A DNA stretch of 64,000 bases from Bacillota bacterium. Its GTDB lineage: Bacteria; Bacillota; Sulfobacillia; JAMCWA01. Shown one piece after another: positions 3,600 to 32,185 of this stretch. The notes under the pieces were generated by a model. The model saw nothing but the letters and a program-made list of their open reading frames with translations. It was not told the DNA's origin and did not search any database. Numbering within the stretch: the first letter of the stretch is position 1; every line of letters starts with the position of its first letter. Location of the stretch: assembly GCA_023475165.1 (NCBI GenBank), contig JAMCWA010000029.1, forward strand, positions 1,950 to 65,949, given 5' to 3'. The position numbers and the translations under genes are program-made.

Positions 3600-3674
3600 G
3601 GGCGAATAGCTCAGTGGTAGAGCACCTGCCTTACACGCAGGGGGTCACAGGTTCGAGCCCTGTTTCGCCCACCA
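3600..3674 (+). tRNA. tRNA-Val (anticodon TAC), CCA encoded
   Basis: Acceptor GGGCGAA/TTCGCCC, anticodon arm CCTGC-CTTACAC-GCAGG, T-loop GGTTCGAGCC, 3' ACCA. Confidence 0.95.
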
Positions 3675-3689
3675 GAGTGACGCAAATAC

Positions 3690-3767
3690 GGAGGCGTGGT
3701 GTAGCTGGCCTAACATACATGCCTGTCACGCATGAGACCGCGGGTTCGAATCCCGTCGCCTCCGCCA
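3690..3767 (+). tRNA. tRNA-Asp (anticodon GTC), CCA encoded
   Basis: Acceptor GGAGGCG/CGCCTCC, anticodon arm CATGC-CTGTCAC-GCATG, T-loop GGTTCGAATCC, 3' GCCA. Confidence 0.95.
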
Positions 3768-3772
3768 TAAAG

Positions 3773-3848
<76 letters not shown>

Positions 3849-3856
3849 GTAATCAT

Positions 3857-3931
3857 GCGGAAGTGGCTCAGTGGTGGAGCATCGCCTTGCCAAGGCGAGG
3901 GTCGCGGGTTCGAATCCCGTCTTCCGCTCCA
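3857..3931 (+). tRNA. tRNA-Gly (anticodon GCC), CCA encoded
   Basis: Acceptor GCGGAAG/CTTCCGC, anticodon arm TCGCC-TTGCCAA-GGCGA, T-loop GGTTCGAATCC, 3' TCCA. Confidence 0.95.
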
Positions 3932-4007
3932 AAAGAGTAAATCGGGGGTCTCCTTGCCAGATCCCCTTAAAGCATATGATGGTCGGATGACCAGTAAGGC
4001 TATCCTG

Positions 4008-4083
4008 GGGCGAGTGGCGAAGTGGCTAACGCTGTGGACTGCAAATCCACCATTCGTCGGTTCAATTCCGACCTCGCCCTCCA
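4008..4083 (+). tRNA. tRNA-Cys (anticodon GCA), CCA encoded
   Basis: Acceptor GGGCGAG/CTCGCCC, anticodon arm GTGGA-CTGCAAA-TCCAC, T-loop GGTTCAATTCC, 3' TCCA. Confidence 0.9.
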
Positions 4084-4089
4084 GAATAC

Positions 4090-4166
4090 GGGCGGTTAGC
4101 TCAGTTGGTTAGAGCGCATGCTTGACATGCATGAGGTCACAGGTTCGAATCCTGTATCGCCCACCA
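4090..4166 (+). tRNA. tRNA-Val (anticodon GAC), CCA encoded
   Basis: Acceptor GGGCGGT/ATCGCCC (one G-U pair), anticodon arm CATGC-TTGACAT-GCATG, T-loop GGTTCGAATCC, 3' ACCA. Confidence 0.95.
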
Positions 4167-6214: not shown

Positions 6215-6390
6215 ATGACCGTCAGAATTGATGAGAAGGGCCGCCAAAAGCGCAGGTTCTTCTACGGGAAGACGCGGGCCGAAGTTCAGCAGAAATTGCC
6301 TGGCCGACGGCTAAGCCGGTTTACCTGTTAATCCCGCGAAAGAGTCGCTGGGGCAGTTTTTAGCCCGCTGGACTACTCTTTTACTACTAC
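6215..6390 (+). pseudogene. Fragment of a tyrosine-recombinase (phage-type integrase) N-terminus
   Basis: MTVRIDEKGRQKRRFFYGKTRAEVQQKL, followed after a frameshift by ESLGQFLARW. This resembles the integrase N-terminal SAM-like region. No catalytic domain follows. Confidence 0.5.
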
Positions 6391-6555
6391 GAGGATAAAA
6401 AACCCTGGATTTTATGAACGCCAAGGATTATGAAGTGCTTTCTATACAGGTTGCGGCAGGATTCTGGGAATGTTCGTCGAATTAGCAACAAAAGGCAGCT
6501 GGCCTTGCAGGATTACAGTGGCGTCACTGATGGCACCCATAGCCTGACGGTGCAG

Positions 6556-6573
6556 TGAATGACCAGTCATTCA
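6556..6573. promoter_or_regulatory. Inverted repeat TGAATGAC-CA-GTCATTCA; candidate FadR(YsiA)/TetR-type operator
   Basis: Perfect 8-bp arms, about 200 bp upstream of the acyl-CoA ligase start. From memory, the TGAATGA...TCATTCA half-sites resemble the Bacillus FadR box. Confidence 0.4.
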
Positions 6574-6768
6574 GAAAAGGCGAGCAAGTCCGTGGCGTAT
6601 GGGTCCCGAGCAAGTACCTAGTTTCTCCGCGATAGGCGTGAAGACCTATCGGGAATATTCCCGGCCATTGGAAGAGAAACGGGGAAGGACACACATATTC
6701 GGTTTACTCCAACACCCTTCAACCACCCCACTACGCCTTCGACGACTACCAAACGAGGAGGGAAGGGC

Positions 6769-8454
6769 ATGCCGCAGCCGGATTATCCCTGGTATCGTCA
6801 TTACGATTCTGATGTCCCCAAGAACCTCACCTACCCCCAAAAGACGGTCTTGGAGCTTTTCGAAGACCGGGCCAGAGAAGCCCCCGACCGCCCGGCGGTG
6901 ATCTTCTTCGGTCACCGCCTTTCCTACGGCCAGCTGGTCGGCTACGTCGACCGGGTGGCCGCAGGGTTGAAGGATTTGGGGTTGGATCCGGGTGAGCGGC
7001 TGGCCCTTCTCCTTCCCAACTGTCCCCAATATGTCATCGCCTTTTTTGCGGCCGTCAAAGCTGGCCTGACCGTCGTTCCGCTTAATCCCCTGAACACCGA
7101 ACGCGAGCTGGAGTTCATCGTTCGCGATGCCGGAGTCAAGGCCGCCGTTGTCTTGGATCTTCTCGCCGCTCGCGTCCAAAAAGTGCGGGAGCGGGTTAGC
7201 GCAGACGGTTCCTCTTCCCTCTTATCCAAAGTGATCTACGCCGCCATTCCGGAGTTTTTGCCCTTCCCGCTCAACTGGCTTTACCCCTTGCGCCAGCCCC
7301 TTTCCGCGGAGGCCAAGAGCGCTTTACCGTATGGTTTGCCGTTTAGTCGTTTGCTTTCAGCCAGGGTCAGACCGCTGGTCCCGCCACCGGTGGACCGCGA
7401 AAAGGATCTGGCCGTCCTCATTTATACCGGCGGCACCACCGGAAAACCGAAAGGGGTCATGCTTTCCCACCGGGCCCTCGTCGTCAACGCCTCCCAAGTA
7501 ATGGCCTGGGGGCAAATAGCGCCAGCCGATCGCGTTTTGGCCGTCCTGCCCTTGTTTCACGGTTTCGGGATGAGCGTGGGGATGAACGCCCCGCTCATCA
7601 CCGGGGCGGCTTCCGTCTTGGTCCCCCGCTATAATGCGGGTGATCTACTGCGAGTGATCCACCGGCAGCGGCCAACCCTCTTTGCCGGGGTCCCGACGAT
7701 GTATATTGGGATGATCAATCACCCGGACTTGAAACGTTACGATCTTTCCTCCCTCCGCGGTTGTTTTGCCGGGGCGGCGGCTTTGCCGGCGGAGATAAAA
7801 CGGCGCTGGGAGGAGCTGACCGGCGGACGCCTCCTTGAGGGCTATGGTCTGACCGAGGCGGTCACCGCCAAGAGCGCCAACCCCTATCGTGGCCTCAACA
7901 AGACCGGGAGCATTGGGATTCCCTTTCCCGATACGGTGATGGAGATCGTCGACCTGGAAACCGGAGAAAAGGTGCTGAAACCGGGCGAAATCGGCGAGAT
8001 CCGGCTCAAGAGTCCCGATCTCATGTTGGGCTACTGGAAGCGGCCGGAAGAAACGGCGGCCGCCCTGCGCGGCGGGTGGCTTTACACCGGGGACCTGGGC
8101 AAAATGGATGAAGACGGTTATTTCTATATCGTTGAGCGGAAGAAGGATCTCATCATCACCGGCGGCTTCAATGTTTATCCCCGGGAAGTGGAGGACGTGC
8201 TCTACCTGCACCCGGCGGTCAGGGAAGCCAGTGTCATCGGGGTTCCTGACGAATACCGGGGGGAGGCGGTCAAGGCCTTTGTCGTCCTCCGCGAGGGGAT
8301 GACGGCCACGGAAGCGGAGATCATCGCCTTCTGCCGCGAGCAGCTGACGCCCTATAAGGTGCCCCGTCAGGTTGAATTTGTCCCGGATCTGCCCAAGAGC
8401 GCCATTGGCAAGGTCTTGCGGCGGGCCTTGCGCGAGAAAGTAGGATCTTCCTAA
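6769..8454 (+). CDS. AMP-forming acyl-CoA ligase (FadD-like long/medium-chain fatty acid-CoA ligase)
   Basis: RBS GGAGGGAAGGG before ATG. AMP-binding motifs [29 protein letters not shown]...DGYFYIVERKKDLI and KSAIGKVLRR. Confidence 0.9.
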   Translation: MPQPDYPWYRHYDSDVPKNLTYPQKTVLELFEDRAREAPDRPAVIFFGHRLSYGQLVGYVDRVAAGLKDLGLDPGERLALLLPNCPQYVIAFFAAVKAGLTVVPLNPLNTERELEFIVRDAGVKAAVVLDLLAARVQKVRERVSADGSSSLLSKVIYAAIPEFLPFPLNWLYPLRQPLSAEAKSALPYGLPFSRLLSARVRPLVPPPVDREKDLAVLIYTGGTTGKPKGVMLSHRALVVNASQVMAWGQIAPADRVLAVLPLFHGFGMSVGMNAPLITGAASVLVPRYNAGDLLRVIHRQRPTLFAGVPTMYIGMINHPDLKRYDLSSLRGCFAGAAALPAEIKRRWEELTGGRLLEGYGLTEAVTAKSANPYRGLNKTGSIGIPFPDTVMEIVDLETGEKVLKPGEIGEIRLKSPDLMLGYWKRPEETAAALRGGWLYTGDLGKMDEDGYFYIVERKKDLIITGGFNVYPREVEDVLYLHPAVREASVIGVPDEYRGEAVKAFVVLREGMTATEAEIIAFCREQLTPYKVPRQVEFVPDLPKSAIGKVLRRALREKVGSS

Positions 8455-8556: not shown

Positions 8557-9693
8557 ATGGAACACGGCGAGACTGACGGTATTAGTACTCTTCTGGCCGC
8601 GGCGCAAAGGCCCAGCGCCGCTTGGCCGAAGGCGTATCCGGAGATTAAATTCTTCGGCTTCTTCTGCAGCTACTGGCCGGAAGAACTGGCTTTGAGCGTA
8701 GGCTGGGAACCATTAAGGCTTCTCCCACCCCTACAGCCGGGGATGGCCGCTCGCCTGCCAGCTTACACCTGTGCGGTGGGCCGCGGGTGTCTGGCTCAGG
8801 CGGAAAACGGTGCGTACCGCCAACTGGCCGGGGTGGGCTTTGCGCATACCTGTGACACGATGCAAAGCCTGTTTGGAGTCTGGAGGAGCCTTTTTGCCGG
8901 CGGAGAGGCTCTCCCGGGGGACGAGTCGACCTTCATGGTGGTGCCTCCCGCCAATCTTCTGGCTATCGGGGCTGAATCTTACTACCGGGCGGAGTTGGAA
9001 CTCCTCTGGCACCGCCTGATGGCGAGGGCCGGGCAAAAACCGGAGGAAGAGGCTCTGCGGGGAGCCATCAGATTGGCAAACCGGATCCGCCGTCAGGTGG
9101 AGGAACTGGAGCGAAGGCGGGCCTGGCTCCCTTCTGATCTGGTCGCCGCTTTGCTCCGGGCCGGGCAACTGATGCCCCGGGCCAACTATGACCAGCAGCT
9201 GGCCCAGGCCTTGAAGCAATTGGAGGACTACCCCTCTTCCCTGGCCGGGCGAGTCCCGTTAGTCCTGAGCGGCTCCGTTTTGGAGGGGGACGGGATTTAT
9301 CGGCTGATTGAGGACCTGGGTGGCCGGGTGGTGGCTGATGACACCTGTACCGGGACCCGCCATTATCTGGGTTTGGTGGACGAGGAGGAGGAGCCCCTCC
9401 TGGCCCTGGCCCGTCGCCACCTCTCCCGGCCGGCCTGTCCCTGCCGTCACCAGGGGTTACCAGCCAGGTTAGATCACTTGAAAGGGTTGCTCCGACAGAG
9501 GGAAGCCCGCGGGGTCCTTTTGGTCTTGCGCAAGTACTGCGAACCCCATGCCTGGGACGCCGTACCCCTGCGCGATGGTTTGAGGGACGCGGGCGTCCCC
9601 GCGTTAATCCTCGAACTGGACGGGACCGCTCCGGGAGAACAAGAGAGGACGCGCCTGCAGGCCTTTTTGGAAGGTCTGGCGGGAGGGTCTTGA
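8557..9693 (+). CDS. 2-hydroxyacyl-CoA dehydratase / benzoyl-CoA reductase BcrC-BadD-HgdB family subunit
   Basis: RBS GAGGAG. The N-terminal FFGFFCSYWPEELALSVGWEPLRL and the Cys-containing segments (HTCDTMQS, DTCTGTRH) are typical of the family. Confidence 0.8.
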   Translation: MEHGETDGISTLLAAAQRPSAAWPKAYPEIKFFGFFCSYWPEELALSVGWEPLRLLPPLQPGMAARLPAYTCAVGRGCLAQAENGAYRQLAGVGFAHTCDTMQSLFGVWRSLFAGGEALPGDESTFMVVPPANLLAIGAESYYRAELELLWHRLMARAGQKPEEEALRGAIRLANRIRRQVEELERRRAWLPSDLVAALLRAGQLMPRANYDQQLAQALKQLEDYPSSLAGRVPLVLSGSVLEGDGIYRLIEDLGGRVVADDTCTGTRHYLGLVDEEEEPLLALARRHLSRPACPCRHQGLPARLDHLKGLLRQREARGVLLVLRKYCEPHAWDAVPLRDGLRDAGVPALILELDGTAPGEQERTRLQAFLEGLAGGS

Positions 9694-9837
9694 CCGTCCT
9701 GACTCATCGGGCGCCTGAACGCCGCCCCGAGCGGATGGTTAGGGAACTTCACCCCGGCCGATACCCCCAGCATCCTCAGGGATATTGGAACATACTCCGG
9801 ATCCCACCCTATCCCATAGTGAAAGGACGTCAGGAGC

Positions 9838-11076
9838 TTGGCCAGGAAAGATTATATCCCGCTGAAAAGCAGCGGCCCTTTGCAGCGGCTGATGAAGCGC
9901 TATTACCTTTTGACTCGTTACCACCACCTTTGGGGCCGGCCCTTGCGGCGGCCACTGGCTTGGATTACCAGCGGCGCCCCGGTCGAGATCCTGCAGGCTC
10001 TTGGCATTGATTCTCTTTATCCGGAGAATTATGGGGCCATTTACGGAGCGCGGCGCAAAGGCGGGGCACTGGCCCTGGCCGCCGAAACCAAGGGTTTCTC
10101 ACCTGATCTTTGTTCTTATGCCCGGGCCAATCTTGGCGCCATTTATCACCCCGATCGCGAACCGCTGGGAGGGCTCCCCCGGCCGGATCTTCTGGTCATC
10201 AGCAGCAACATCTGCGGTACCGTTTTAAAATGGTACGAAGCCCTGGCCCGCCACTACGGCGTACCTCTCCTCATCGTCGATACCCCTTTTGTCGCCGCTG
10301 ACGACGGAGTATCCCGGCAGCACGTAGTGGCCTACGTTCGGGGACAGCTCCGGCAGCTGATCGCCGATTTGACCAAGATTACCGGGCGTCCTCTCCCCAT
10401 GACCGAACTGGAGCGGCGGATTAAGTGGAGCAACGAGGCGGTGCAACTTTGGGAGGAGATCCGCCGGCTGGGCCGGAATCGCCCCGCTCCGCTCAATGTT
10501 CCCGATCTATTCATTCAGATGGCGCCCATCGTCGTCCTGCGGGGGACACCTCAGGCGGTAGCTTACTATCGCCAGCTCTACGCCGAGGCTAAGGAGAGGG
10601 TGCGGCAGGGGCTGGGAGCCGTTCCGGGGGAAAAATACCGCCTACTTTGGGATAACATCGCCATCTGGCATCATCTTTACCGGTTTTTCAACCTTTTTTC
10701 GCGGCGCGGGGCGGCCTTTGTGGTCGACACCTACACCGCGGGATGGGCGGGGACCATGGCCCCCGGGGATCCCCTGGAAAGTCTGGCCCGGACCTATACG
10801 GAAGTTTTCCTCAACCAGTCCTTTGAGTTTCGGGTGAGACAAATGATTCAGTTGATCCGGGAGTATAAGGTGGACGGCTTTGTGATGCATTCCAACCGTT
10901 CCTGCAAGCCATACTCATTAATTCAAGAGGAAATGCGGCGGAGGGTGATGGCGGAAACGGGGGTCCCCGGGCTCATCGTCGAAGCGGATATGACCGATGA
11001 GCGGGCTTACGCCGAGGAGCCCATCAAAAACCGGGTGGAAGCCTTTTTAGAGAGCTTGGAAGGGGGCGGGGACTAG
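9838..11076 (+). CDS. 2-hydroxyacyl-CoA dehydratase family subunit (HgdA/BcrB-like)
   Basis: TTG start 10 nt after GAAAGGA. LAWITSGAPVEILQALGIDSLYPENYGA, CSYARANLG, ICGTVLKWY and HSNRSCKPYS are characteristic family segments. Confidence 0.8.
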   Translation: MARKDYIPLKSSGPLQRLMKRYYLLTRYHHLWGRPLRRPLAWITSGAPVEILQALGIDSLYPENYGAIYGARRKGGALALAAETKGFSPDLCSYARANLGAIYHPDREPLGGLPRPDLLVISSNICGTVLKWYEALARHYGVPLLIVDTPFVAADDGVSRQHVVAYVRGQLRQLIADLTKITGRPLPMTELERRIKWSNEAVQLWEEIRRLGRNRPAPLNVPDLFIQMAPIVVLRGTPQAVAYYRQLYAEAKERVRQGLGAVPGEKYRLLWDNIAIWHHLYRFFNLFSRRGAAFVVDTYTAGWAGTMAPGDPLESLARTYTEVFLNQSFEFRVRQMIQLIREYKVDGFVMHSNRSCKPYSLIQEEMRRRVMAETGVPGLIVEADMTDERAYAEEPIKNRVEAFLESLEGGGD

Positions 11077-11469
11077 TCTGGTCAGAAGTCCGCCGAAAGA
11101 TCGGTCAATCCCTTGTTCGACCCCCAGGCCGCAAGCGGTGCCAGCAGCGGATGAAAAAGCCGGCCGCGGAGCGGGGGTGCTGGCAGTTTGTGGAGGGAGG
11201 CGGCGTAGCCGCATTGGTCCGAGCTGGTACCGCCCTCCGCAAGGCGCGGCCTGAAGTCCGGACGGCGGCACGGATGCCGCCGAGCGCGGCTCTCCAGGGA
11301 TGGAGAATCCGCGCGGCACCGGACGAAAGGCCGCCGGCGAGCGGCTAAGGGCGTCAGCGTAGGGACCTGCGGTTAGCCGCCGACCACAGCAAGCTCGCCG
11401 CTAGAATGCGCTCGGCGCGAGTGACTTGCGGAGCGCATCTCCATATTTTGAAATAAATTGGCGCGAGGG

Positions 11470-12291
11470 ATGAGGTTGAAGGTGGAACATTATTTCTTGG
11501 GAGTAGACATCGGTTCTCTAACCACCAAAATCGTCCTTTTGGATGAAGGCGGGAAAATCGTGGCCCAGGCCACCCGGCGTTCGGGCTACCGCGGCAAAGA
11601 GACGGCGGAACGGTTACTGGAGGACCTGTTGCGGGAGCGGGGTTTAGGCCGGGAGCAGATCGCCAAAGTCGCGGCCACCGGCTATGGCCGGATTACTTTT
11701 CCCGCCGATCGGGAGATCTCCGAGATCACCTGCCAGGCGCGGGGGATTAACCATCTCTTTCGGGGAGTCCGCACCATCATCGACATTGGCGGGCAGGATA
11801 GCAAAGTGATCAAAATTTTGCCTAGTGGCCGGGTGGGCGATTTCGTGATGAACGATAAATGCGCGGCGGGGACGGGGCGCTTCCTGGAGGTCATGAGTCA
11901 AGCTTTGGAGGTAGACTTAGAAGAGCTGGGAAGACTGGCCGGCCTGGCGGAAAAGGCGGCAGCGATTTCCTCGACCTGTACCGTTTTCGCGGAATCGGAG
12001 GTAGTATCGTATTTGGCCCAAGGGGCCGAAAGAAGCGACATCATCGCCGGGCTTTGTGCTTCCGTGGCCGCGCGGGTAGCGGCCCTGGTCAGCCGCGTCG
12101 GTGTGGAAAAAGAGGTCCTTTTAACCGGAGGTGTGGCCCGGAACCAGGGCGTGGTGCGGGCTTTGCAGGAGAAGCTGGGTCTTGCGCTCTTGATCCCCCC
12201 AGAACCCAGTATAACGGCTGCCCTGGGCGCCGCCCTTTTTGCCCGCGACCTGGCAAGGAACAATGAAAATGTCACGATAAAAACGCGTTAA
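11470..12291 (+). CDS. ATP-dependent activase of the radical dehydratase (HgdC / BcrAD-BadFG ATPase family)
   Basis: LGVDIGSLTTKIVLLDEGG (ASKHA phosphate-1), DIGGQDSKVI, NDKCAAGTGRFLE (cluster-ligand Cys region), TGGVARNQGVV. The start is uncertain: ATG 11470 or TTG 11458. Confidence 0.85.
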   Translation: MRLKVEHYFLGVDIGSLTTKIVLLDEGGKIVAQATRRSGYRGKETAERLLEDLLRERGLGREQIAKVAATGYGRITFPADREISEITCQARGINHLFRGVRTIIDIGGQDSKVIKILPSGRVGDFVMNDKCAAGTGRFLEVMSQALEVDLEELGRLAGLAEKAAAISSTCTVFAESEVVSYLAQGAERSDIIAGLCASVAARVAALVSRVGVEKEVLLTGGVARNQGVVRALQEKLGLALLIPPEPSITAALGAALFARDLARNNENVTIKTR

Positions 12292-16206: not shown

Positions 16207-16409
16207 TTTGCCGGAAGTAACGCTCACCCTCCCTGTTTGGTAGAATTGGCTGATTTGTTTTGGGACCTCTTTAGGAAGTAACGCTATGATCGCAATGTCC
16301 TTGCCGGCGAGAGAGGTAAGGCACCTGTGGAAGGCGCTTCCAGAAGCTCTTGTATACGATTTTTTGGCCGCACATATACTATTAACACCGGAAGAAAGGA
16401 GTGATCCGG

Positions 16410-17315
16410 TTGCAGCTTAGTATTGGGACGGCCAGGTACGTCGATGAACTGCGAGAGCGGTTGGGTTACGAATTCCGCTCTCTAGAACGAGAGGGGCTAA
16501 GTGTTGATAAGGCCGAGACAAGCCGGGGAAACTTGACCTTCCTCGGATACGATATCAGAAGGAATGAGCGGACGAAGTACAGCCAGGATGACATTAATGC
16601 CCTACTGAAGCATTACGTCGCCAACACCGTCTCTGACATTATCGTCAGTGATTGGGAGGATTTCCTTCTCAAAAAGATCATTAAAGAAAACTACTATTAC
16701 TTGAGTAAGGAGGAACAGGAGGCCATCCTCAAGCATGTTGGCGAGGGCTCGGAATGCCCTGATCGGGACTTTTATGTGCGAATGTCTCGGAAAACCAGGG
16801 TCCTGAACCAACTCCTGGAATTTTTTCGCTCCAATAATGAACTCGTGGTGGAGGGTTTCTTGACCTTTCGTCTCAAGGACTATTTGGAGGAACTGGAAGA
16901 AGTCGTCGACCGGGCGGTAGACGATTTTCTGATGGAAAAGGAGTATAAAGAGTTCGTCCGTCTCCTGAAGTATTTTGTAGATATTCAGGAGCCCAGGGAA
17001 GCTGAAGTGAACATATTCTTCCTTCCGGAGGGTGGCTTTCATCTCTTGGACAAAAGCTTTAACGAGATTAAGAGTGAAAGCCTAAGCGAATTCATGGTAA
17101 GCGGAATAGGTGAAAACGAGGTGGAATTCGAAGACGTTCTCATCAGCTCGCTGATCACCCTTTCCCCTTTGCGAATCATCTTGCATTCACCTCCCCAAGA
17201 AGAACGTTTCAGTCTGGAAACCATCAAGGCCGTCTTCGGCGAGAGGGTAAGTACTTGCCGGAACTGTTCCCGTTGCAAGGCGGCGGTGGAAAAGGTTCCG
17301 CAAAAGGAGAGATAG
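16410..17315 (+). CDS. ytxC: Sporulation protein YtxC-like
   Basis: Acidic ~300-aa protein immediately upstream of thrS, the conserved Bacillus ytxC-thrS arrangement. TTG 16410 lies 8 nt after AAAGGAG (GTG 16401 abuts the SD). Family assignment is by synteny and composition. Confidence 0.6.
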   Translation: MQLSIGTARYVDELRERLGYEFRSLEREGLSVDKAETSRGNLTFLGYDIRRNERTKYSQDDINALLKHYVANTVSDIIVSDWEDFLLKKIIKENYYYLSKEEQEAILKHVGEGSECPDRDFYVRMSRKTRVLNQLLEFFRSNNELVVEGFLTFRLKDYLEELEEVVDRAVDDFLMEKEYKEFVRLLKYFVDIQEPREAEVNIFFLPEGGFHLLDKSFNEIKSESLSEFMVSGIGENEVEFEDVLISSLITLSPLRIILHSPPQEERFSLETIKAVFGERVSTCRNCSRCKAAVEKVPQKER

Positions 17316-18209: not shown

Positions 18210-18530
18210 AATGTGACATCATACTTATGGCGATGATCGGGAAAGTAACTCTTTTCAGACCTAGCAGAGAAGAGGGCCGCTGGCTGAAAGCCCTCAGGCA
18301 GAGGAAAGAGCGAAAACCACCCGAGAGCCGGAGGATGAACGGGATCGCCTGCACAGATCTCGCCAGGGGTCTTTAAGGGCGGAGCGAGTCCCCTGCAGGC
18401 AGTTGACCAACGCGGTCTCCTACTAAATCCTCCCGGATGGTCCCGTTAAAGGCCGACGAGTGGATCCTTTTTCGGATCAAACAGGGTGGAACCGCGGTCA
18501 GCAACCGTCCCTATCGGGGCGGTTTTTTGT
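18210..18530 (+). promoter_or_regulatory. T-box riboswitch, Thr specifier (ACC)
   Basis: Stem I start GCGATGATCGGGAAAGTA. Specifier-loop GAAAACCA with ACC at 18316-18318. T-box AGGGTGGAACCGCG at 18483-18496. Terminator CCGTCCC-TATC-GGGGCGG plus T6 (18504-18528). Confidence 0.9.
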
Positions 18531-18620: not shown

Positions 18621-18695
18621 CCGTTGCTGTTTCATACTTTTTGGCGCCGCCAAAAGGCGGCAGGGGGATCTCCTAGATCAAAGGAGGGGTCTTTC

Positions 18696-20627
18696 ATGTC
18701 AACTATCAAGATTCGTTTTCCCGACGGCCAGGAGAAAGAATACCCTGAAGGGGTGACGGCAGGGGAGATAGCCGAAGGCCTGGGGGCTGGGCTGGCTCGG
18801 GCGGCTCTGGCGGCCCTCATTGACGGCGAGATGGTGGATCTTTCTCGCCCCCTGTCCCAGACTGGGGAGATTCGTCTTTTGACCTTCGATGATCCAGAAG
18901 GGAGGGAGGTCTTGCGGCATAGTACCTCCCACGTCATGGCTCAGGCCGTCCAGCACCTCTTCCCTGGGGTCAAACTGGCTATCGGACCGGCCATTGAAGA
19001 TGGTTTCTACTATGACTTTGATGTTCCGCAGCCCTTCACCCCGGAAGATCTCACTCGTATTGAAGAGGAGATGGGGCGGATCATTGCGGCCGATTACCCT
19101 TTCCTGCGGGAGGAGGTCAGCCGGGAGGAGGCCCTGCGCCTGTTTGCGGAGCGGGGAGAAAAGTACAAGGTGGAACTCATCGTCGATCTTCCGGCCGGGG
19201 AGCCCATCTCCCTCTACCGGCAGGGGGACTTCCTCGACCTCTGCGCTGGTCCCCACATCCCATCCACCGGAAAGGTCAAGCACTTCAAGCTTCTGAGCGT
19301 AGCTGGGGCCTACTGGCGGGGGGACGAAAAGCGTCCCATGCTGCAAAGGATCTATGGAACTGTTTTTGCCAAGAAGAGCGACTTGGAGGAGTATCTTCGT
19401 CGCCTCGAGGAAGCCAAGAGAAGGGACCACCGCCGTCTGGGGCGGGAGCTGGACCTTTTCAGCCTGCAAGAGGAGGCTGGTCCGGGATTGGTCTTTTGGC
19501 ACCCTAAAGGGGGTCTGGTCCGCCAGTTGATCGAGGACTTCTGGCGCGCTGAGCACCGGCGCCGTGGGTATGAGATCGTTTTTTCCCCGCACATCGCGAA
19601 GCTTGACCTTTGGAAGATCAGTGGGCACTGGAGCTGGTACAAAGAGAACATGTACTCCCCCATCAATATCGATGAGGTGGAGTACCTCCTGAAGCCTATG
19701 AACTGTCCTTTCCACATCCTGATGTATAAATCGGCCACCCGGAGCTATCGGGACCTGCCCTTGCGCTGGGGGGAACTGGGAACCGTTTATCGCTACGAGC
19801 GCTCCGGGGTGCTGCACGGCCTCCTGCGGGTGCGCGGCTTTACCCAGGACGATGCCCACCTCTTTGTCCGTCCGGACCAGCTCAAGGATGAACTGGTGGG
19901 GGTCATTGATTTGGCGCAGTTTATGATGGAATCGTTCGGCTATCAGAACTATGAACTCATGCTTTCCGTCCGCGACCCAGAGAACAAGACCAAGTATATT
20001 GGCAGCGATGAGGTCTGGGAGATGGCGGAAAAGGCCCTGGTAGGAGCGCTCCAGACCAAGGGTCTCCCCTACGTCCTGGGCGAGGGGGAAGCCAAATTCT
20101 ACGGACCGGCCATCGACATCACCCTGAAGGACGCCCTGGGGCGAGGGTGGCAGGGTCCCACCATTCAGGTGGACTTCAATCTGCCGGAACGCTTTGATCT
20201 GGCCTATATCGGCGAGGACGGTCAACCGCACCGGCCGGTGATGATCCACCGGACAGTTCTTGGTTCCATGGAACGTTTCATGGGCGGACTGATCGAACAT
20301 TACGCCGGGGCCTTCCCCCTCTGGCTAGCGCCGGTTCAGGCCCGGCTTTTGCCCATCACCGAGCGGCATCATGAATATGCCTATTCCGTCCAGAAAAGGT
20401 TGCAGGAAGCCGGACTGCGGGTCGAGGTGGACCCGCGTAGCGAAAAGGTGGGCTACAAGATCCGCCAGGCTGAGATGGAGAAAGTCCCCTATATGCTGGT
20501 AGTGGGCGATAAGGAAAGAGACCTGGGCCAGGTGGCCGTCCGGCAGCGACAGCAGGGTGATCTTGGCCCCATGGGGGTTGAGGACTTCCTCAGCAAAGCC
20601 CGGGCGGAAATCGGGGAGAAAAGATAG
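18696..20627 (+). CDS. thrS: Threonyl-tRNA synthetase
   Basis: RBS AAAGGAGGGG, ATG 18696 (MSTIKIRFPDGQ). TGS, editing and class II core motifs (HRRLGRELDLF, FRAEHRRRGY, GFTQDDAHLF). Confidence 0.97.
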   Translation: MSTIKIRFPDGQEKEYPEGVTAGEIAEGLGAGLARAALAALIDGEMVDLSRPLSQTGEIRLLTFDDPEGREVLRHSTSHVMAQAVQHLFPGVKLAIGPAIEDGFYYDFDVPQPFTPEDLTRIEEEMGRIIAADYPFLREEVSREEALRLFAERGEKYKVELIVDLPAGEPISLYRQGDFLDLCAGPHIPSTGKVKHFKLLSVAGAYWRGDEKRPMLQRIYGTVFAKKSDLEEYLRRLEEAKRRDHRRLGRELDLFSLQEEAGPGLVFWHPKGGLVRQLIEDFWRAEHRRRGYEIVFSPHIAKLDLWKISGHWSWYKENMYSPINIDEVEYLLKPMNCPFHILMYKSATRSYRDLPLRWGELGTVYRYERSGVLHGLLRVRGFTQDDAHLFVRPDQLKDELVGVIDLAQFMMESFGYQNYELMLSVRDPENKTKYIGSDEVWEMAEKALVGALQTKGLPYVLGEGEAKFYGPAIDITLKDALGRGWQGPTIQVDFNLPERFDLAYIGEDGQPHRPVMIHRTVLGSMERFMGGLIEHYAGAFPLWLAPVQARLLPITERHHEYAYSVQKRLQEAGLRVEVDPRSEKVGYKIRQAEMEKVPYMLVVGDKERDLGQVAVRQRQQGDLGPMGVEDFLSKARAEIGEKR

Positions 20628-28275: not shown

Positions 28276-30822
28276 ATGAGGGTTTCCCATAACTGGCTAA
28301 AGGAATACGTCGATTCTGACCTCACCCCGCGGGACCTGGCCGAGGCTTTAACCCAGGCTGGGGTGAATGTGGCCCAAGTGGAAAAAGTGGAGGGGGCGCG
28401 GGGGGTGGTGGTGGCCAGGATCGTCACCTTGAGGCCGCATCCGAACTCGGACCGCCTTTTGGTAGCCGCGGTTTCGGCGGGAGAGAGCGGAGGCCAGGTG
28501 GTAACGGGCGCCACCAATATCAAGCCCGGGGATTGTGTACCCTGGGCGGCTCCTGGGGCCATACTGCCTGGAAACTGGGCCATCGGCACGACCGATTTGC
28601 GTGGCGTTCGATCGGAGGGGATGCTCCTCTCCGAAACAGAGCTCCTTTTGGGCCAACCTCACCTGGAGGACGAGGGCATTCTCGTCCTGGGGGAGGATGC
28701 TGTGCCTGGGACGCCGGTAACCCCCCTCCTGGGTCTGGAGGACCATATGCTGGAACTGGACCTCACTCCGAACTACGCTGCCCATTGTCAGAGCATGATC
28801 GGAGTGGCCCGGGAGGTAACGGTCATCACTGGTGGGAAGCTACGGTGGCCAGGCCGAGCAGCGACTCCCGCCGGTCCCCTTCCGCCCGGTGGCCTCGCCG
28901 GCAAGGCCGGGACTGTGCTCGGGACGGCTGGACCGAATCCGCTTTTCTCCTGGGTCACGGTGGAGGTCTGGGACACGGATCTCTGTCCTCGCTACACGGG
29001 GCGGATCATCTCCGACGTCAAGATTGGCCCTTCTCCGGCCTGGATGCGACAACGGCTCCAGTCAGCCGGGATCAGACCCATCAACAACGTGGTGGATGTC
29101 ACCAACTACGTCATGCTGGAACTGGGACAGCCGCAGCACGCCTTCGATTACGATCTGCTCCGGCAGAAAAAGGTGATCGTCCGCCGGGCCAGGGTCGGTG
29201 AGAAGATCCGGACCCTGGACGGTGTGGAAAGAACCCTGGAGGGGGACGATCTCGTCATAGCCGATCCGGAACGGGCCATAGGCATTGCCGGGGTCATGGG
29301 CGGAGAAGAGACTGAGATTACCGCTTCCACCAGGACCATCTTCTTGGAGTCGGCCTATTTCGCGGGACGGGGGATCAGCCGGACCTCGCGGCGCCTGGGT
29401 TTACGTTCCGAGGCCTCCGGTCGCTTTGAAAAGGGGCTGGACCCCAATCTGGCCCTGGTGGCAGCGGACCGGGCAGTGGAATTAATGGAATTGCTCGGGG
29501 CCGGGAAGGGGGTTCCCGGGGTAGTCGACCTTTACCCCAACCCGGTCAAGCCCCGGGAGATCACCCTACGGCTGGAGCGAATGAACGGGCTCTTGGGGAC
29601 AGACTTAACCGTTGAGGAGACGGCCTCCATCTTACGGCGTTTGGGGTTTGCCACTGAGTTGGAGGTCGCAGGGTCTGATAGTCTTGAGGCCCCAACTGGG
29701 ACGATGGAGAAAGGTCCCCGAATCTTGGTCCACGTTCCCACCTTCCGACCCGATATTGAGGCAGAAGTGGACCTGGCGGAGGAGGTGGCACGGGTCTATG
29801 GTTTCAACCGCATAAAAACCACTCTGCCCTTTGGGCCCACCACCTCTGGGGGCAAGGACCGGGAACACCAATTGGTGGACTTGGCCCGGGGAGAGCTGGT
29901 AAGTATGGGGCTGGACGAGGTCTTGACTTATTCCTTTATCCACCCGGCTACCTTCGACCGTCTCCGCCTGCCGGTCGATGACCTCCAGAGGAGGGCACTG
30001 GTGCTTTCGAACCCCCTCTCTGAGGAACAGAGCGTCATGCGGACCGGCCTCCTTGGTAGTATCCTCGAGGTTATGGCCTATAACGCCAGCCGGAAAAACG
30101 CCGATCTGGCCATCTTTGAAATCGGGACGGTGTACCTGCCGGTGGAGGTTCCCCCAACCAGGCAGCCCGAAGAGGTCTGGCGGCTGGGGTTAGGGGCTAT
30201 GGGAAACTGGCGGCGCAAAACCTGGCGGGAACCGGCGGCTGCCGGAGACTTCTATTACCTGAAGGGCGTCCTGGAGAGGCTCCTTGAAAGGCTGGGGCTG
30301 GAGGGGCGGTTTGAGGCCGGTCAGCATCCGACCTTCCAGCCAGGACGGACAGCCAGGTTGTTGGTGCGATCCAAAGCCCGCCGGAAGGCTCACCAGTTGG
30401 TTATGGTGGGTTGGTTGGGGCAGGTTCACCCCGATGTCCAGGGGGCCTATGACCTGCCGGGAAGTTGTTATCTGGCGGAACTGGACTTCTCGTATCTATT
30501 GAAGGAGGCCGATCTGACCAGGACCTACCAGGCTTGGACCAGGTTCCCGGCCGTTGCCAGAGACCTGGCCTTGGTGGCACCGGAAGGGGTCCCAGCCCAA
30601 GACATCGCTGAGGTCATCCAGCAAGAGGGCGGGGAGCTCCTGGAGAGCTGGCGGCTATTCGACCTGTACCAGGGTGATCCTGTCCCGTCCGGTTACCGTA
30701 GCCTGGCCTTCTCTCTCACCTACCGTTCAACGGAACGGACTTTGACCGACGAAGAGGTAGACGACAGACAGGAACAGGTCTTACGGAGGCTTCAGGAGGG
30801 GTACGGGGTCAGGTTGAGATAG
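28276..30822 (+). CDS. pheT: Phenylalanyl-tRNA synthetase beta subunit
   Basis: ATG 28276 lies 8 nt after AGGGAG and gives MRVSHNWLKEYV. tRNA-binding, B3/4, B5 and FDX-ACB regions are recognisable. Confidence 0.95.
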   Translation: MRVSHNWLKEYVDSDLTPRDLAEALTQAGVNVAQVEKVEGARGVVVARIVTLRPHPNSDRLLVAAVSAGESGGQVVTGATNIKPGDCVPWAAPGAILPGNWAIGTTDLRGVRSEGMLLSETELLLGQPHLEDEGILVLGEDAVPGTPVTPLLGLEDHMLELDLTPNYAAHCQSMIGVAREVTVITGGKLRWPGRAATPAGPLPPGGLAGKAGTVLGTAGPNPLFSWVTVEVWDTDLCPRYTGRIISDVKIGPSPAWMRQRLQSAGIRPINNVVDVTNYVMLELGQPQHAFDYDLLRQKKVIVRRARVGEKIRTLDGVERTLEGDDLVIADPERAIGIAGVMGGEETEITASTRTIFLESAYFAGRGISRTSRRLGLRSEASGRFEKGLDPNLALVAADRAVELMELLGAGKGVPGVVDLYPNPVKPREITLRLERMNGLLGTDLTVEETASILRRLGFATELEVAGSDSLEAPTGTMEKGPRILVHVPTFRPDIEAEVDLAEEVARVYGFNRIKTTLPFGPTTSGGKDREHQLVDLARGELVSMGLDEVLTYSFIHPATFDRLRLPVDDLQRRALVLSNPLSEEQSVMRTGLLGSILEVMAYNASRKNADLAIFEIGTVYLPVEVPPTRQPEEVWRLGLGAMGNWRRKTWREPAAAGDFYYLKGVLERLLERLGLEGRFEAGQHPTFQPGRTARLLVRSKARRKAHQLVMVGWLGQVHPDVQGAYDLPGSCYLAELDFSYLLKEADLTRTYQAWTRFPAVARDLALVAPEGVPAQDIAEVIQQEGGELLESWRLFDLYQGDPVPSGYRSLAFSLTYRSTERTLTDEEVDDRQEQVLRRLQEGYGVRLR

Positions 30823-30970
30823 ATTGGGAAAAAGGGAGCCCAGTGGCTGGGGGGCAACCCCCGGTTTAAAAGCCGCGACCAGATCGTCGATACCCGTTTC
30901 CGAGGTGCTAAGTAGAAAAATTCTTCACGGTGATGCATATAAAGTTTCCACCTGGCCAAAATACCACTAG

Positions 30971-31387
30971 AGGTCTGCAGTAGCCGAGCTAAGACTGTCA
31001 TAGGTTCCCGCCGGGGATCTATGATAGTCGAGCAAAGGTTGTCAGGGGCCTACCGGTTCCTGGCAGCCGGAGCGCAGATCATCAGGCGTCCTGTCAGGGT
31101 TCCTGGCAGTCCCTTAGATTGTCAGGGGCTCAAAAGGGATGTCTGGTGGTCGAGCAAAGATCATCATGGGTTCCGCAGGTCTGCTAACAGGCTCTACGGG
31201 ACACCGTCTCGCCGACTAGAGGTTTACGGCAGCCGAGAGGTTGCCGTAGGCTTCGCAGGTACTCATGATGGTCGAGATAAGGTTATTGCAGGTTCCGTAA
31301 GGGTCTATGGTAGCCGAAAGGTTGCCGTGGGCTCTGTAGGGATCTGCAGTAGCCGGACGAAGGTTGCTGCAGGCTTCTTTTTTGTTT
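30971..31387 (+). repeat. Array of about ten degenerate 37-45-nt hairpin repeats ending in an intrinsic terminator; candidate structured multi-hairpin RNA
   Basis: Units share CTNNNG-(G/A)T-AGCCGAG..AAGGTTG-NNNN-AGG. Clear hairpins: TACGGCA-GCCGAGAGGT-TGCCGTA (31225-31248), CTATGGTA-GCCGAAAGGT-TGCCGTGG (31305-31330) and CTGCAGTA-GCCGGACGAAGGT-TGCTGCAG (31344-31372), followed by the T-run 31375-31387. Confidence 0.7.
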
Positions 31388-31388
31388 A

Positions 31389-31493
31389 GGCGCCCGAAGG
31401 TGAGAAGTGATCAAACCAACTCCTTGTCATGAAATATTGCGCTTACCTTCTTTGGGGCGGCGCCCGAAGGTGAGAAGTGACCAAACCCACTCC
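31389..31493 (+). repeat. 35-bp direct repeat pair (offset 70 bp)
   Basis: GGCGCCCGAAGGTGAGAAGTGATCAAACCAACTCC (31389-31423) versus GGCGCCCGAAGGTGAGAAGTGACCAAACCCACTCC (31459-31493); 33/35 identical. Confidence 0.85.
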
Positions 31494-31685
31494 GGGCTTC
31501 GCTTCGCCGGAGGCGATGGCCGGCTCGACAAAAGCCGCTTGGCCGGCAATCGCCCTCCCGTCACCACCTGGCCGTTTGCACTGTTCTATACCGCCGCTTA
31601 AGGCGGCAGGGAGATTTGCTCCGCGCCTCTTTTGACAGACGCGGACGCTATAATATTTTAAGATTGCGCCAATTCATGTGAAGTA

Positions 31686-31714
31686 TTGCACAATAGGGGA
31701 AAGGGAAGTATAAT
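31686..31714 (+). promoter_or_regulatory. Candidate sigma-A promoter of the hydrogenase operon (implies a ~465-nt leader)
   Basis: TTGCAC (31686-31691), 17-nt spacer, TATAAT (31709-31714). Confidence 0.5.
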
Positions 31715-32185
31715 TGGATTGAAGGATTCTATCTATTTGGGCCGTACATATCCTGCAGCAGAGTTAGTACATTCTTGCGCAGCCCTGTCTATGTGAGAGA
31801 AGTAACTATATCTCTATGGCCTGTGATCTTCGGGCGAAGCGCCCTCCTCTCGGCACGGGTAGCAGTCCCCGCGACGGGGCGCAGAATACGCGGTCTGAGC
31901 CAATACTGACCTTGGCAAACTCCTAAGATTCTCCCATAAGTCTACTTTCAGGAGAAGGAATGTGACGGAACTAACAGGTATATCTTAAACCCCCGTCAGA
32001 ACATCCTGGGGAATAGGGTCGGCCGAGAGCCGATCTTGTTAGAAAAGAGACGATGTGATTTCCGGGAGGAGATTGTTCCGTCATTAACAACAGGGCAGGT
32101 GCTGAGAGAGAGTGGCGGCTGCGTTCTGACCGGACGGCTTATGAGAATCGATAGACAGCAATTCTGGAAGGAGGTTTGATGTCTC

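Follow-up and report, generated by a model that had tools for sequence, protein, structure and literature searches.

A structured RNA built from copies of one helix module around a six-way junction, downstream of pheT in a Bacillota bacterium

What is encoded by the degenerate repeats that lie between pheT and a NiFe hydrogenase operon in a Bacillota bacterium of the Sulfobacillia (JAMCWA01)? The locus is part of a stretch of 64,000 nucleotides (assembly GCA_023475165.1, contig JAMCWA010000029.1, positions 1,950 to 65,949, forward strand), hereafter called the window, and positions refer to this window unless another locus is named. A preliminary description, made from the letters alone, had proposed about ten hairpins with a conserved GYCGAG..AAGGU loop that end in a terminator, and had likened them to protein-sequestering RNAs. 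The data presented here leave little doubt that the array is a conserved structured RNA gene. However, its units do not stand side by side as hairpins but are wired into one closed domain with a six-way junction.

Repeat units, strand and fold of the array

Ten consecutive degenerate units of ~41 nucleotides, U1 to U10, occupy positions 30970-31377 of the plus strand. A hidden Markov model built from nine of the units recovered all nine with E-values between 1e-8 and 8e-5, and it detected no further units elsewhere in the 64-kb window. The repeat families follow each other with start-to-start spacings of 41, 81 and 122 nucleotides. Tandem Repeats Finder reported nothing at the array, because the units are just 60-77% alike. 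Each unit comprises a left arm of ~16 nucleotides, a purine-rich linker, a right arm of ~16 nucleotides and a short linker, the purine-rich linker being either a 7-nucleotide sequence of the GAGCAAA type or a GNRA tetraloop.

Folding of the plus strand yielded -256.6 kcal/mol, compared with -158.9 ± 5.2 kcal/mol for shuffled sequences (z = -18.6), whereas the reverse complement reached -130.9 kcal/mol (z = -0.9). Moreover, the five most strand-asymmetric segments in a sliding-window fold scan of the 64 kb all fall in the array. This asymmetry arises because G-U pairs are abundant (wobbles make up 26.5% of all pairs), and the pairing therefore acts at the level of the RNA, on the plus strand. 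Hence, the count of about ten units and the strand-specific G-U pairing of the stems agree with the preliminary description, as does the recurrence of the motif GYCGAG..AAGGT, which is reiterated and conserved across homologues. Its proposal of a plus-strand RNA under selection for pairing is likewise supported, by the strand-specific fold together with the covariation described below.

A second strand-asymmetric fold was observed at positions 2500-2900 on the minus strand (-85 versus -54 kcal/mol per 150 nucleotides). Here the minus strand is G-rich and of low complexity, and an open reading frame (ORF) with a CAP domain overlaps on the plus strand; the fold probably reflects a low-complexity stretch and not an RNA element.

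In both the minimum-energy fold and the consensus fold of nine homologues the arms of the units mostly pair with arms of other units, and the array folds as one closed domain. The first and the last unit are joined in helix P1, and five arms leave a six-way junction, three of them lengthened by a second helix. In total, nine main helices of 14-16 bp and a variable insert make up the RNA. The six motifs of 7-8 nucleotides of the GAGCAAA type are the strands of the central junction, while GAGA and GAAA are the only true tetraloops. The elements are listed below, with the pairing and covariation found in an alignment of nine sequences.

30970..31377 (+): the structured RNA itself, delimited by the two strands of P1; fold, consensus structure and covariation
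30970-30985 with 31362-31377 (+): P1, 5′ strand paired with 3′ strand, closing the domain; 16 pairs, 9 compensatory, 99.2% of cells paired
30986..30992 (+): junction strand J1/2, GAGCTAA; GAGCNNA conserved in 8 homologues
30993-31007 with 31015-31029 (+): arm S1, a 15-bp hairpin in which the right half of unit 1 pairs with the left half of unit 2; 7 covarying pairs, 99.2% paired
31030..31076 (+): J2/3 (GAGCAAA), S2 and J3/4 (GGAGCGCA); J2/3 pairs with J3/4
31037-31050 with 31055-31068 (+): arm S2, a 14-bp hairpin; 9 covarying pairs, 100% paired
31077-31092 with 31136-31151 (+): arm S3; 7 covarying pairs, 100% paired
31097-31131 (+): U4 hairpin, extending S3 through a 4x4 internal loop; 8 covarying pairs, 100% paired
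31152..31158 (+): junction strand J4/5, GAGCAAA; GRGCWAA in all 9 sequences
31159-31174 with 31258-31273 (+): arm S4, enclosing U6 and U7; 5 covarying pairs
31175-31218 (+): U6, variable insert; length and sequence vary among homologues
31219-31254 (+): U7 hairpin with GAGA tetraloop; 7 covarying pairs
31274..31280 (+): junction strand J5/6, GAGATAA; GAGMNAA in all sequences
31281-31296 with 31339-31354 (+): arm S5; 8 covarying pairs
31300-31335 (+): U9 hairpin with GAAA tetraloop, extending S5 through a symmetric GUA/GUA internal loop; 7 covarying pairs, GAAA invariant in 9 sequences
31355..31361 (+): junction strand J6/1, GGACGAA; conserved as G(U)RSCGWA

Thus, the view of the units as so many hairpins with a conserved loop does not hold, as just U4, U7 and U9 are local hairpins and the 7-nucleotide motifs are strands of the multiloop, not loops. 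Units U1, U2, U3, U5, U8 and U10 find their pairing partners in other units, neighbouring or distant, in the covariation-supported structure. When an all-local hairpin model was applied to the same alignment, these six units paired in 62-84% of cells, as opposed to 97-100% in the nested fold. Within the junction, one of the pairs formed between J2/3 and J3/4 (alignment columns 67:111) changes between G-C and C-G from clade to clade. An alternative pairing of J1/2 with J3/4, seen in single-sequence folds of one clade, fails in the clade of the window and in the homologue L017 upon inspection of the alignment.

Homologues, covariation and the helix module

Is this fold shared by other genomes? 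As proposed in the preliminary description, the RNA was sought downstream of pheT in relatives. The one close relative of PheT (68% identity) stems from a metagenome, and downstream of its pheT lies the same RNA, 91-92% identical, followed by a different gene. In L007, which encodes a PheT of ~50% identity, the RNA is absent after pheT; at positions 6480-6850 of this locus a very GC-rich direct repeat of ~185 nucleotides in two copies stands where the RNA would be.

For a wider search, the translation of the spurious ORF 31021-31389 served as a degenerate spaced-seed probe of raw DNA collections, and homologues were located with nhmmer. The probe matched two metagenome-assembled genomes (MAGs) of GTDB Bacillota, L017 and L018, and nine metagenome loci. 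After removal of duplicates, eight distinct homologues besides the window remained, seven full-length and one partial, which are 60-93% identical. In viral contigs, one pattern scan gave no match, another gave chance matches alone, and a translated search revealed no relative. One such chance match is the hairpin GGCAGCC-GAGA-GGTTGCC of the phage contig L010, whose intrinsic terminators at 90-130 and 440-480 (GCCCGGCAGCC-GAGA-GGTTGCCGGGC and a T-run) form nearly the same hairpin as U7; both seem to have converged on the very stable C(GAGA)G-capped stem rather than to be homologous. The short-read contigs L002, L003, L021, L023, L024, L025 and L027 start or stop inside the RNA. The family is probably under-represented in MAGs, because its internal near-repeats break assemblies.

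Covariation was tested on the window and its eight homologues. The 144 consensus pairs are formed in 98.8% of cells, and 68 of them changed on both sides. In controls with the partners slid by 1-3 columns, 32-44% of cells were paired and 8-13 pairs showed two-sided changes, and none of 500 column shuffles (0/500) matched any of the observed covariation measures. This support, which is unusually strong for so few sequences, extends to the long-range helices P1, S3, S4 and S5 with 5-9 compensatory pairs each. Folded singly, the full-length homologues adopt the same architecture (z = -11 to -20), and the minus strands of the 8 homologues reach about half the fold energy of the plus strand, the same asymmetry as in the window. 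Conservation peaks in the strands of the junction and the base pairs next to them, and also in the invariant GAAA loop and in the internal loops; the peripheral loops and U6 vary.

Alignment of the nine helices of all sequences from their junction or tetraloop end showed that a single 16-bp module recurs in all nine main helices, its wobbles at positions 3, 12 and 14 being near-invariant.

Position 1: G-C, 88%
Position 3: U-G, 83% of cells
Position 12: G-U, 95% of cells
Position 14: U-G, 78% of cells
Positions 15-16: mostly C-G
Positions 5-10 and 13: free switching between A-U and G-C

As the wobbles persist where neighbouring pairs covary, the G-U pair itself seems to be selected, which suggests that either a partner or another part of the RNA recognises it. 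To our knowledge, no other natural RNA is built from one wobble-fixed helix module that is copied nine times and wired by long-range partner exchange into a six-way junction.

The earlier statement that no match was known agrees with a comparison with the 4227 models of Rfam 15, which gave no match on the array at gathering thresholds and nothing relevant in six homologous loci. An E-value scan of positions 30700-31800 returned chance matches only, for instance mir-1178 with 19.5 bits against 75. In the literature we found no earlier description of this RNA. The family is absent from Rfam 15 and appears to be new both as a family and as an architecture.

Transcription signals and gene context

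Does the RNA possess signals of its own for transcription? A forespore-type (sigma-F/sigma-G) promoter is predicted directly upstream:

30935..30963 (+): predicted promoter, -35 GCATA, 14-nucleotide spacer, -10 GGCCAAAATA; exact consensus match, ending 6 nucleotides before P1

The SigF consensus GYATA-14/15 nt-GGnnAnAHTR goes back to work from 2006 and is given here as quoted in a citing paper; SigF and SigG forespore promoters overlap in specificity. On both strands of the 64-kb window (128 kb), positions 30935-30963 are the sole exact match to GYATA-N14-GGNNANAHTR. They are also the sole exact match in the window to GHATR-N17-CAHWHTA, which we take to be the SigG consensus, with 0.2 matches expected by chance. 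A forespore-type promoter was detected in 7 of 8 loci, with its 3′ edge 6-8 nucleotides before P1:

Window: GCATA-14-GGCCAAAATA, exact
L018 and L020: GTATA-14-GGTTACAATA, exact
L026: GAATA-14-GGCAAAAATA, 1 mismatch
L004: GAATA-14-GCTCAAAATA, 2 mismatches
L022: GAATT-14-GGACAAAATA, 2 mismatches
L025: GAATT-14-GGGCACAATA, 2 mismatches

In addition, the window encodes two sporulation proteins, a SipL/SPOCS protein with an SH3 domain (144-1928) and YtxC (16401-17315), and the host is probably an endospore former. Because of the promoter matches and these proteins, we lean slightly towards expression of the RNA in the forespore from the predicted promoter.

At the other end, the T-run noted after the last hairpin is present, and a terminator-like site was called just upstream of it:

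31362..31388 (+): P1 3′ strand and U-tract (31378-31383), predicted intrinsic terminator and RNA 3′ end; terminator-like site 31343-31373 plus CTTCTTTTTT

A U-tract directly after P1 is found in the window, L004, L017, L018 and L020, and an extra canonical terminator hairpin ~10 nucleotides downstream in L018, L022 and L026. Between L018 and L020, whose RNAs are 93% identical, the conserved block reaches from ~45 nucleotides upstream of P1 to the terminator. The flanking genes, on the other hand, differ in every clade:

Window: pheT upstream, NiFe hydrogenase (Fer4_22 subunit) downstream
L004: pheT upstream, DUF1028 downstream
L017: Crp-family regulator upstream, convergent SSF symporter downstream
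L018: DUF2619 upstream, divergent (opposite strand)
L020: SiaC-GGDEF upstream
L022: DUF896 upstream, class-V aminotransferase downstream

Taken together, a predicted promoter and terminator are conserved with the RNA across differing gene contexts, and we consider an independent transcription unit quite probable on these sequence features. Previously, a discrete plus-strand transcript or a 3′ untranslated region (3′-UTR) of pheST had been suggested; the former stands, as a discrete RNA unit with predicted ends, whereas the tie to pheST is lost with the other neighbours found elsewhere. The RNA is not tied to pheT.

Further repeats were observed in the flanks. A direct repeat of ~30-47 nucleotides, GGCGCCCGAAGGTGAGAAGTGAYCAAACC, occurs in two copies at 31389-31417 and 31459-31487 (in a wider delimitation 31377-31423 and 31447-31493). 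The copies are 70 nucleotides apart and are placed after the RNA terminator, ahead of the hydrogenase promoter. A third copy is absent from the window, L004 does not conserve the repeat, and it could be a pair of regulator-binding sites or a small repeat element. In L004, a 40-nucleotide tandem repeat at 6602-6768 (4.2 copies, 85% matches) begins within the last pheT codons and copies the 3′ end of pheT (GGCCAGGTTGCGTTAGCGG...) again beyond the stop codon. In L018, a 105-nucleotide tandem repeat at 6344-6581 (2.3 copies, 98% matches) lies ~90 nucleotides past the RNA terminator and reaches the contig end.

A possible function of the RNA and its alternatives

What could such an RNA do? The explanation that we favour, and that we hold as a whole to be somewhat on the probable side, combines several layers of different strength. 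Transcription would start at the sigma-F/sigma-G-type promoter a few bases before P1 and stop at the U-tract right after P1, giving rise to an RNA of ~410 nucleotides. As both ends would be buried in P1, this RNA should be very stable and protected from exonucleases. While the spore develops or lies dormant, it would then act in trans, as a multivalent scaffold or sponge. One double-stranded-RNA-binding domain has a footprint of ~16 bp; each G-U-marked 16-bp helix would correspond to about one such footprint, and many copies of a single partner would find the same docking surface on every helix. Alternatively, the helices might dock neighbouring helices and the adenosines of the junction strands within a compact RNA particle. 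The scaffold or sponge mechanism, which is put forward tentatively, is drawn from the architecture; gene neighbourhood links no partner protein to the RNA. Should the RNA be a sponge, the reiterated feature would be the G-U-marked 16-bp helix, and not the loop.

We would also venture, with the same reserve, that this RNA is the founding member of a new developmental RNA class. In forespores of anaerobic Bacillota it might form a hyper-stable, pseudo-symmetric particle, in which nine identical G-U-coded 16-bp helices either organise or sequester many copies of a spore protein able to recognise A-form helices, or pack into a body of RNA alone that the dormant spore stores.

Several observations weigh against the favoured explanation. 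The comparison comprises nine distinct sequences from about four clades, and the purine/pyrimidine pattern common to all arms could partly reflect descent by duplication instead of selection. Promoter, start site and 3′ end of the transcript are predicted from the sequence. In L017, which has a same-strand gene upstream, the forespore-type promoter is not matched (4 mismatches). A weak sigma-A box (CAAAAT, TACAAT) can also be read in the -10 region, although its -35 is poor, and would suit housekeeping transcription, and sigF and sigG were not seen in the 64-kb window. Moreover, no plus-strand terminator was called in the spacer that separates the RNA of the window from pheT, and read-through from pheST may also yield the RNA. 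Finally, no conserved neighbouring protein gene that could encode a partner of a scaffold or sponge was found at the loci.

The nearest rival to a scaffold or sponge is a compact or oligomeric particle that consists of RNA only. The RNA would either pack or assemble by itself, like the homo-oligomers of ROOL, GOLLD and OLE, or be a ribozyme with the purine-rich six-way junction as its core, and the G-U pairs and GAAA would serve tertiary contacts. The peak of conservation in the junction strands, adjacent pairs, GAAA and internal loops is in line with this idea, as is the absence of a conserved protein gene next to the loci; furthermore, large bacterial RNAs of unknown function form RNA-only assemblies, according to published work. 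However, we found neither a self-complementary conserved loop for oligomerisation nor a canonical tetraloop receptor opposite a helix partner, and to find nine near-identical helices is less typical of a catalytic core than of a multivalent binding platform. We therefore regard an RNA-only machine as rather improbable.

In several respects the RNA resembles OLE, the raiA motif, ROOL and GOLLD, large ornate non-coding RNAs of bacteria whose function is unknown or just emerging. They are likewise several hundred nucleotides long and encoded by free-standing genes, with many covariation-backed helices around multi-helix junctions. Two of them, OLE and raiA, are found in Bacillota that are anaerobic or form spores, and disruption of raiA affects sporulation, as reported in a published study (PMC10861870). 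In contrast, none of the Rfam models of these RNAs matches the RNA of the window, none of the four shows a nine-fold 16-bp module with fixed wobbles, and the RNA of the window has no associated protein genes such as oapA. With the Bacillus forespore small RNAs CsfG and Bvs196/S547 it shares promoters of the sigma-F/sigma-G type and an intrinsic terminator, which in our case are predicted. Bvs196 comprises 294 nucleotides, has a conserved stable fold, influences spore resistance and has been proposed to base-pair with mRNA targets (PMC9147052). By its description it folds far less stably, with -82 kcal/mol (PMC9147052) compared with -256 kcal/mol for the RNA of the window.

The sponge originally envisaged, of the CsrB/RsmZ type with ~ten independent hairpins that show the GYCGAG..AAGGU loop to a loop-binding protein, appears unlikely. 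Like CsrB/RsmZ and 6S RNA, the array presents a structural element several times over within a single stable molecule, a hint of multivalent binding; its motif recurs, is conserved across homologues and is followed by a terminator, and the local pairings, feasible in 62-84% of cells, could form transient hairpins during transcription. Yet covariation favours the nested fold with its 97-100%, in which six of the motifs are junction strands. What is reiterated is a 16-bp helix with a junction strand instead of a GGA loop, and no GGA/ANGGA loops are present: loops and junction strands read GAGCAAA, GAGA and GAAA, as the preliminary description had recognised in setting the motif apart from that of CsrA. 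The array has no Rfam match, and the sole PrrB/RsmZ match, with a score of 11 bits (threshold 44), falls outside it.

Could the RNA instead be a cis-acting element, either a 3′-UTR stabiliser or terminator of pheST or a leader of the hydrogenase operon? It starts 147 nucleotides after pheT on the same strand in the window, it also follows pheT in L004, and no terminator was detected between the two. In four other clades, however, it adjoins neither pheT nor hydrogenase genes, the upstream gene of L018 is divergent, the downstream gene of L017 is convergent, and the conserved block consists of promoter, RNA and terminator only. In addition, the hydrogenase operon has sigma-70-like promoter matches of its own at 31632-31714, and L007 has pheT but not the RNA. 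Such a cis element is thus very unlikely.

We judge it still less probable that the array is a selfish or structural DNA repeat of the REP/BIME, BOX or MITE kind, that is, imperfect palindromes without an RNA function. Similar imperfect palindromic units of ~35-45 nucleotides do cluster downstream of genes in REP/BIME and BOX arrays, the present units are intergenic, and several assemblies break inside them. In contrast to such repeats, the RNA occupies a single locus in 64 kb and pairs on one strand only, owing to 26% G-U pairs. Its conserved unit, its long-range nested helices and the order of all units over 410 nucleotides are kept across genomes with compensatory changes, it has its own predicted promoter and terminator, and no copies were found in viral contigs.

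There is hardly any room for a type III toxin-antitoxin system, in which the array would be a ToxI-like antitoxin of ~40-nucleotide repeats with a terminator and a toxin gene. Similar to ToxI and CptI with their tandem units of ~36-45 nucleotides and a terminator, the array has tandem ~41-nucleotide units, a terminator and, in the window, a same-strand gene behind it. Nevertheless, its units are degenerate (60-77% identical, not near-identical) and pair with each other, and no toxin gene follows immediately. The downstream gene differs per locus (Fer4_22/NiFe hydrogenase, DUF1028, convergent SSF symporter, aminotransferase), and no ToxN-like gene was seen, although no dedicated PADLOC scan was made.

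The 122-codon open frame 31021-31389 of the window can be dismissed as a protein-coding gene: two stops interrupt it in L017 and indels displace it from one homologue to the next, so that it is not conserved. Its substitutions follow the pattern of a paired RNA, it has no Pfam match, and the annotations of NCBI, ENA and JGI call no gene there. Consequently, annotating a 122-aa hypothetical protein here would be a mistake. The region also breaks short-read assemblies.

Large, highly structured bacterial RNAs are rare, and nearly every one that has been studied revealed new biology, such as ribozymes, OLE or the ROOL and GOLLD cages. The modular design of the present RNA makes a binding or assembly function directly testable. 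If the forespore promoter holds true, a large structured RNA would be tied to spore development or dormancy in uncultured anaerobic Bacillota, in which we know of very few regulatory RNAs.

Lastly, some features lie apart from the RNA. Six tRNA genes are clustered at 3600-4163. A T-box leader (18224-18515) precedes an ORF of 667 aa (18624-20627), possibly the gene of an aminoacyl-tRNA synthetase. In front of pheS, whose ORF has ~240 nucleotides of extra upstream frame, no T-box was detected. At 8557-12291, a gene for an AMP-binding ligase is followed by genes for two HGD-D subunits (2-hydroxyacyl-CoA dehydratase/benzoyl-CoA reductase-like) and a BcrAD/BadFG activator ATPase, which form an anaerobic acyl-CoA dehydratase or reductase cluster.

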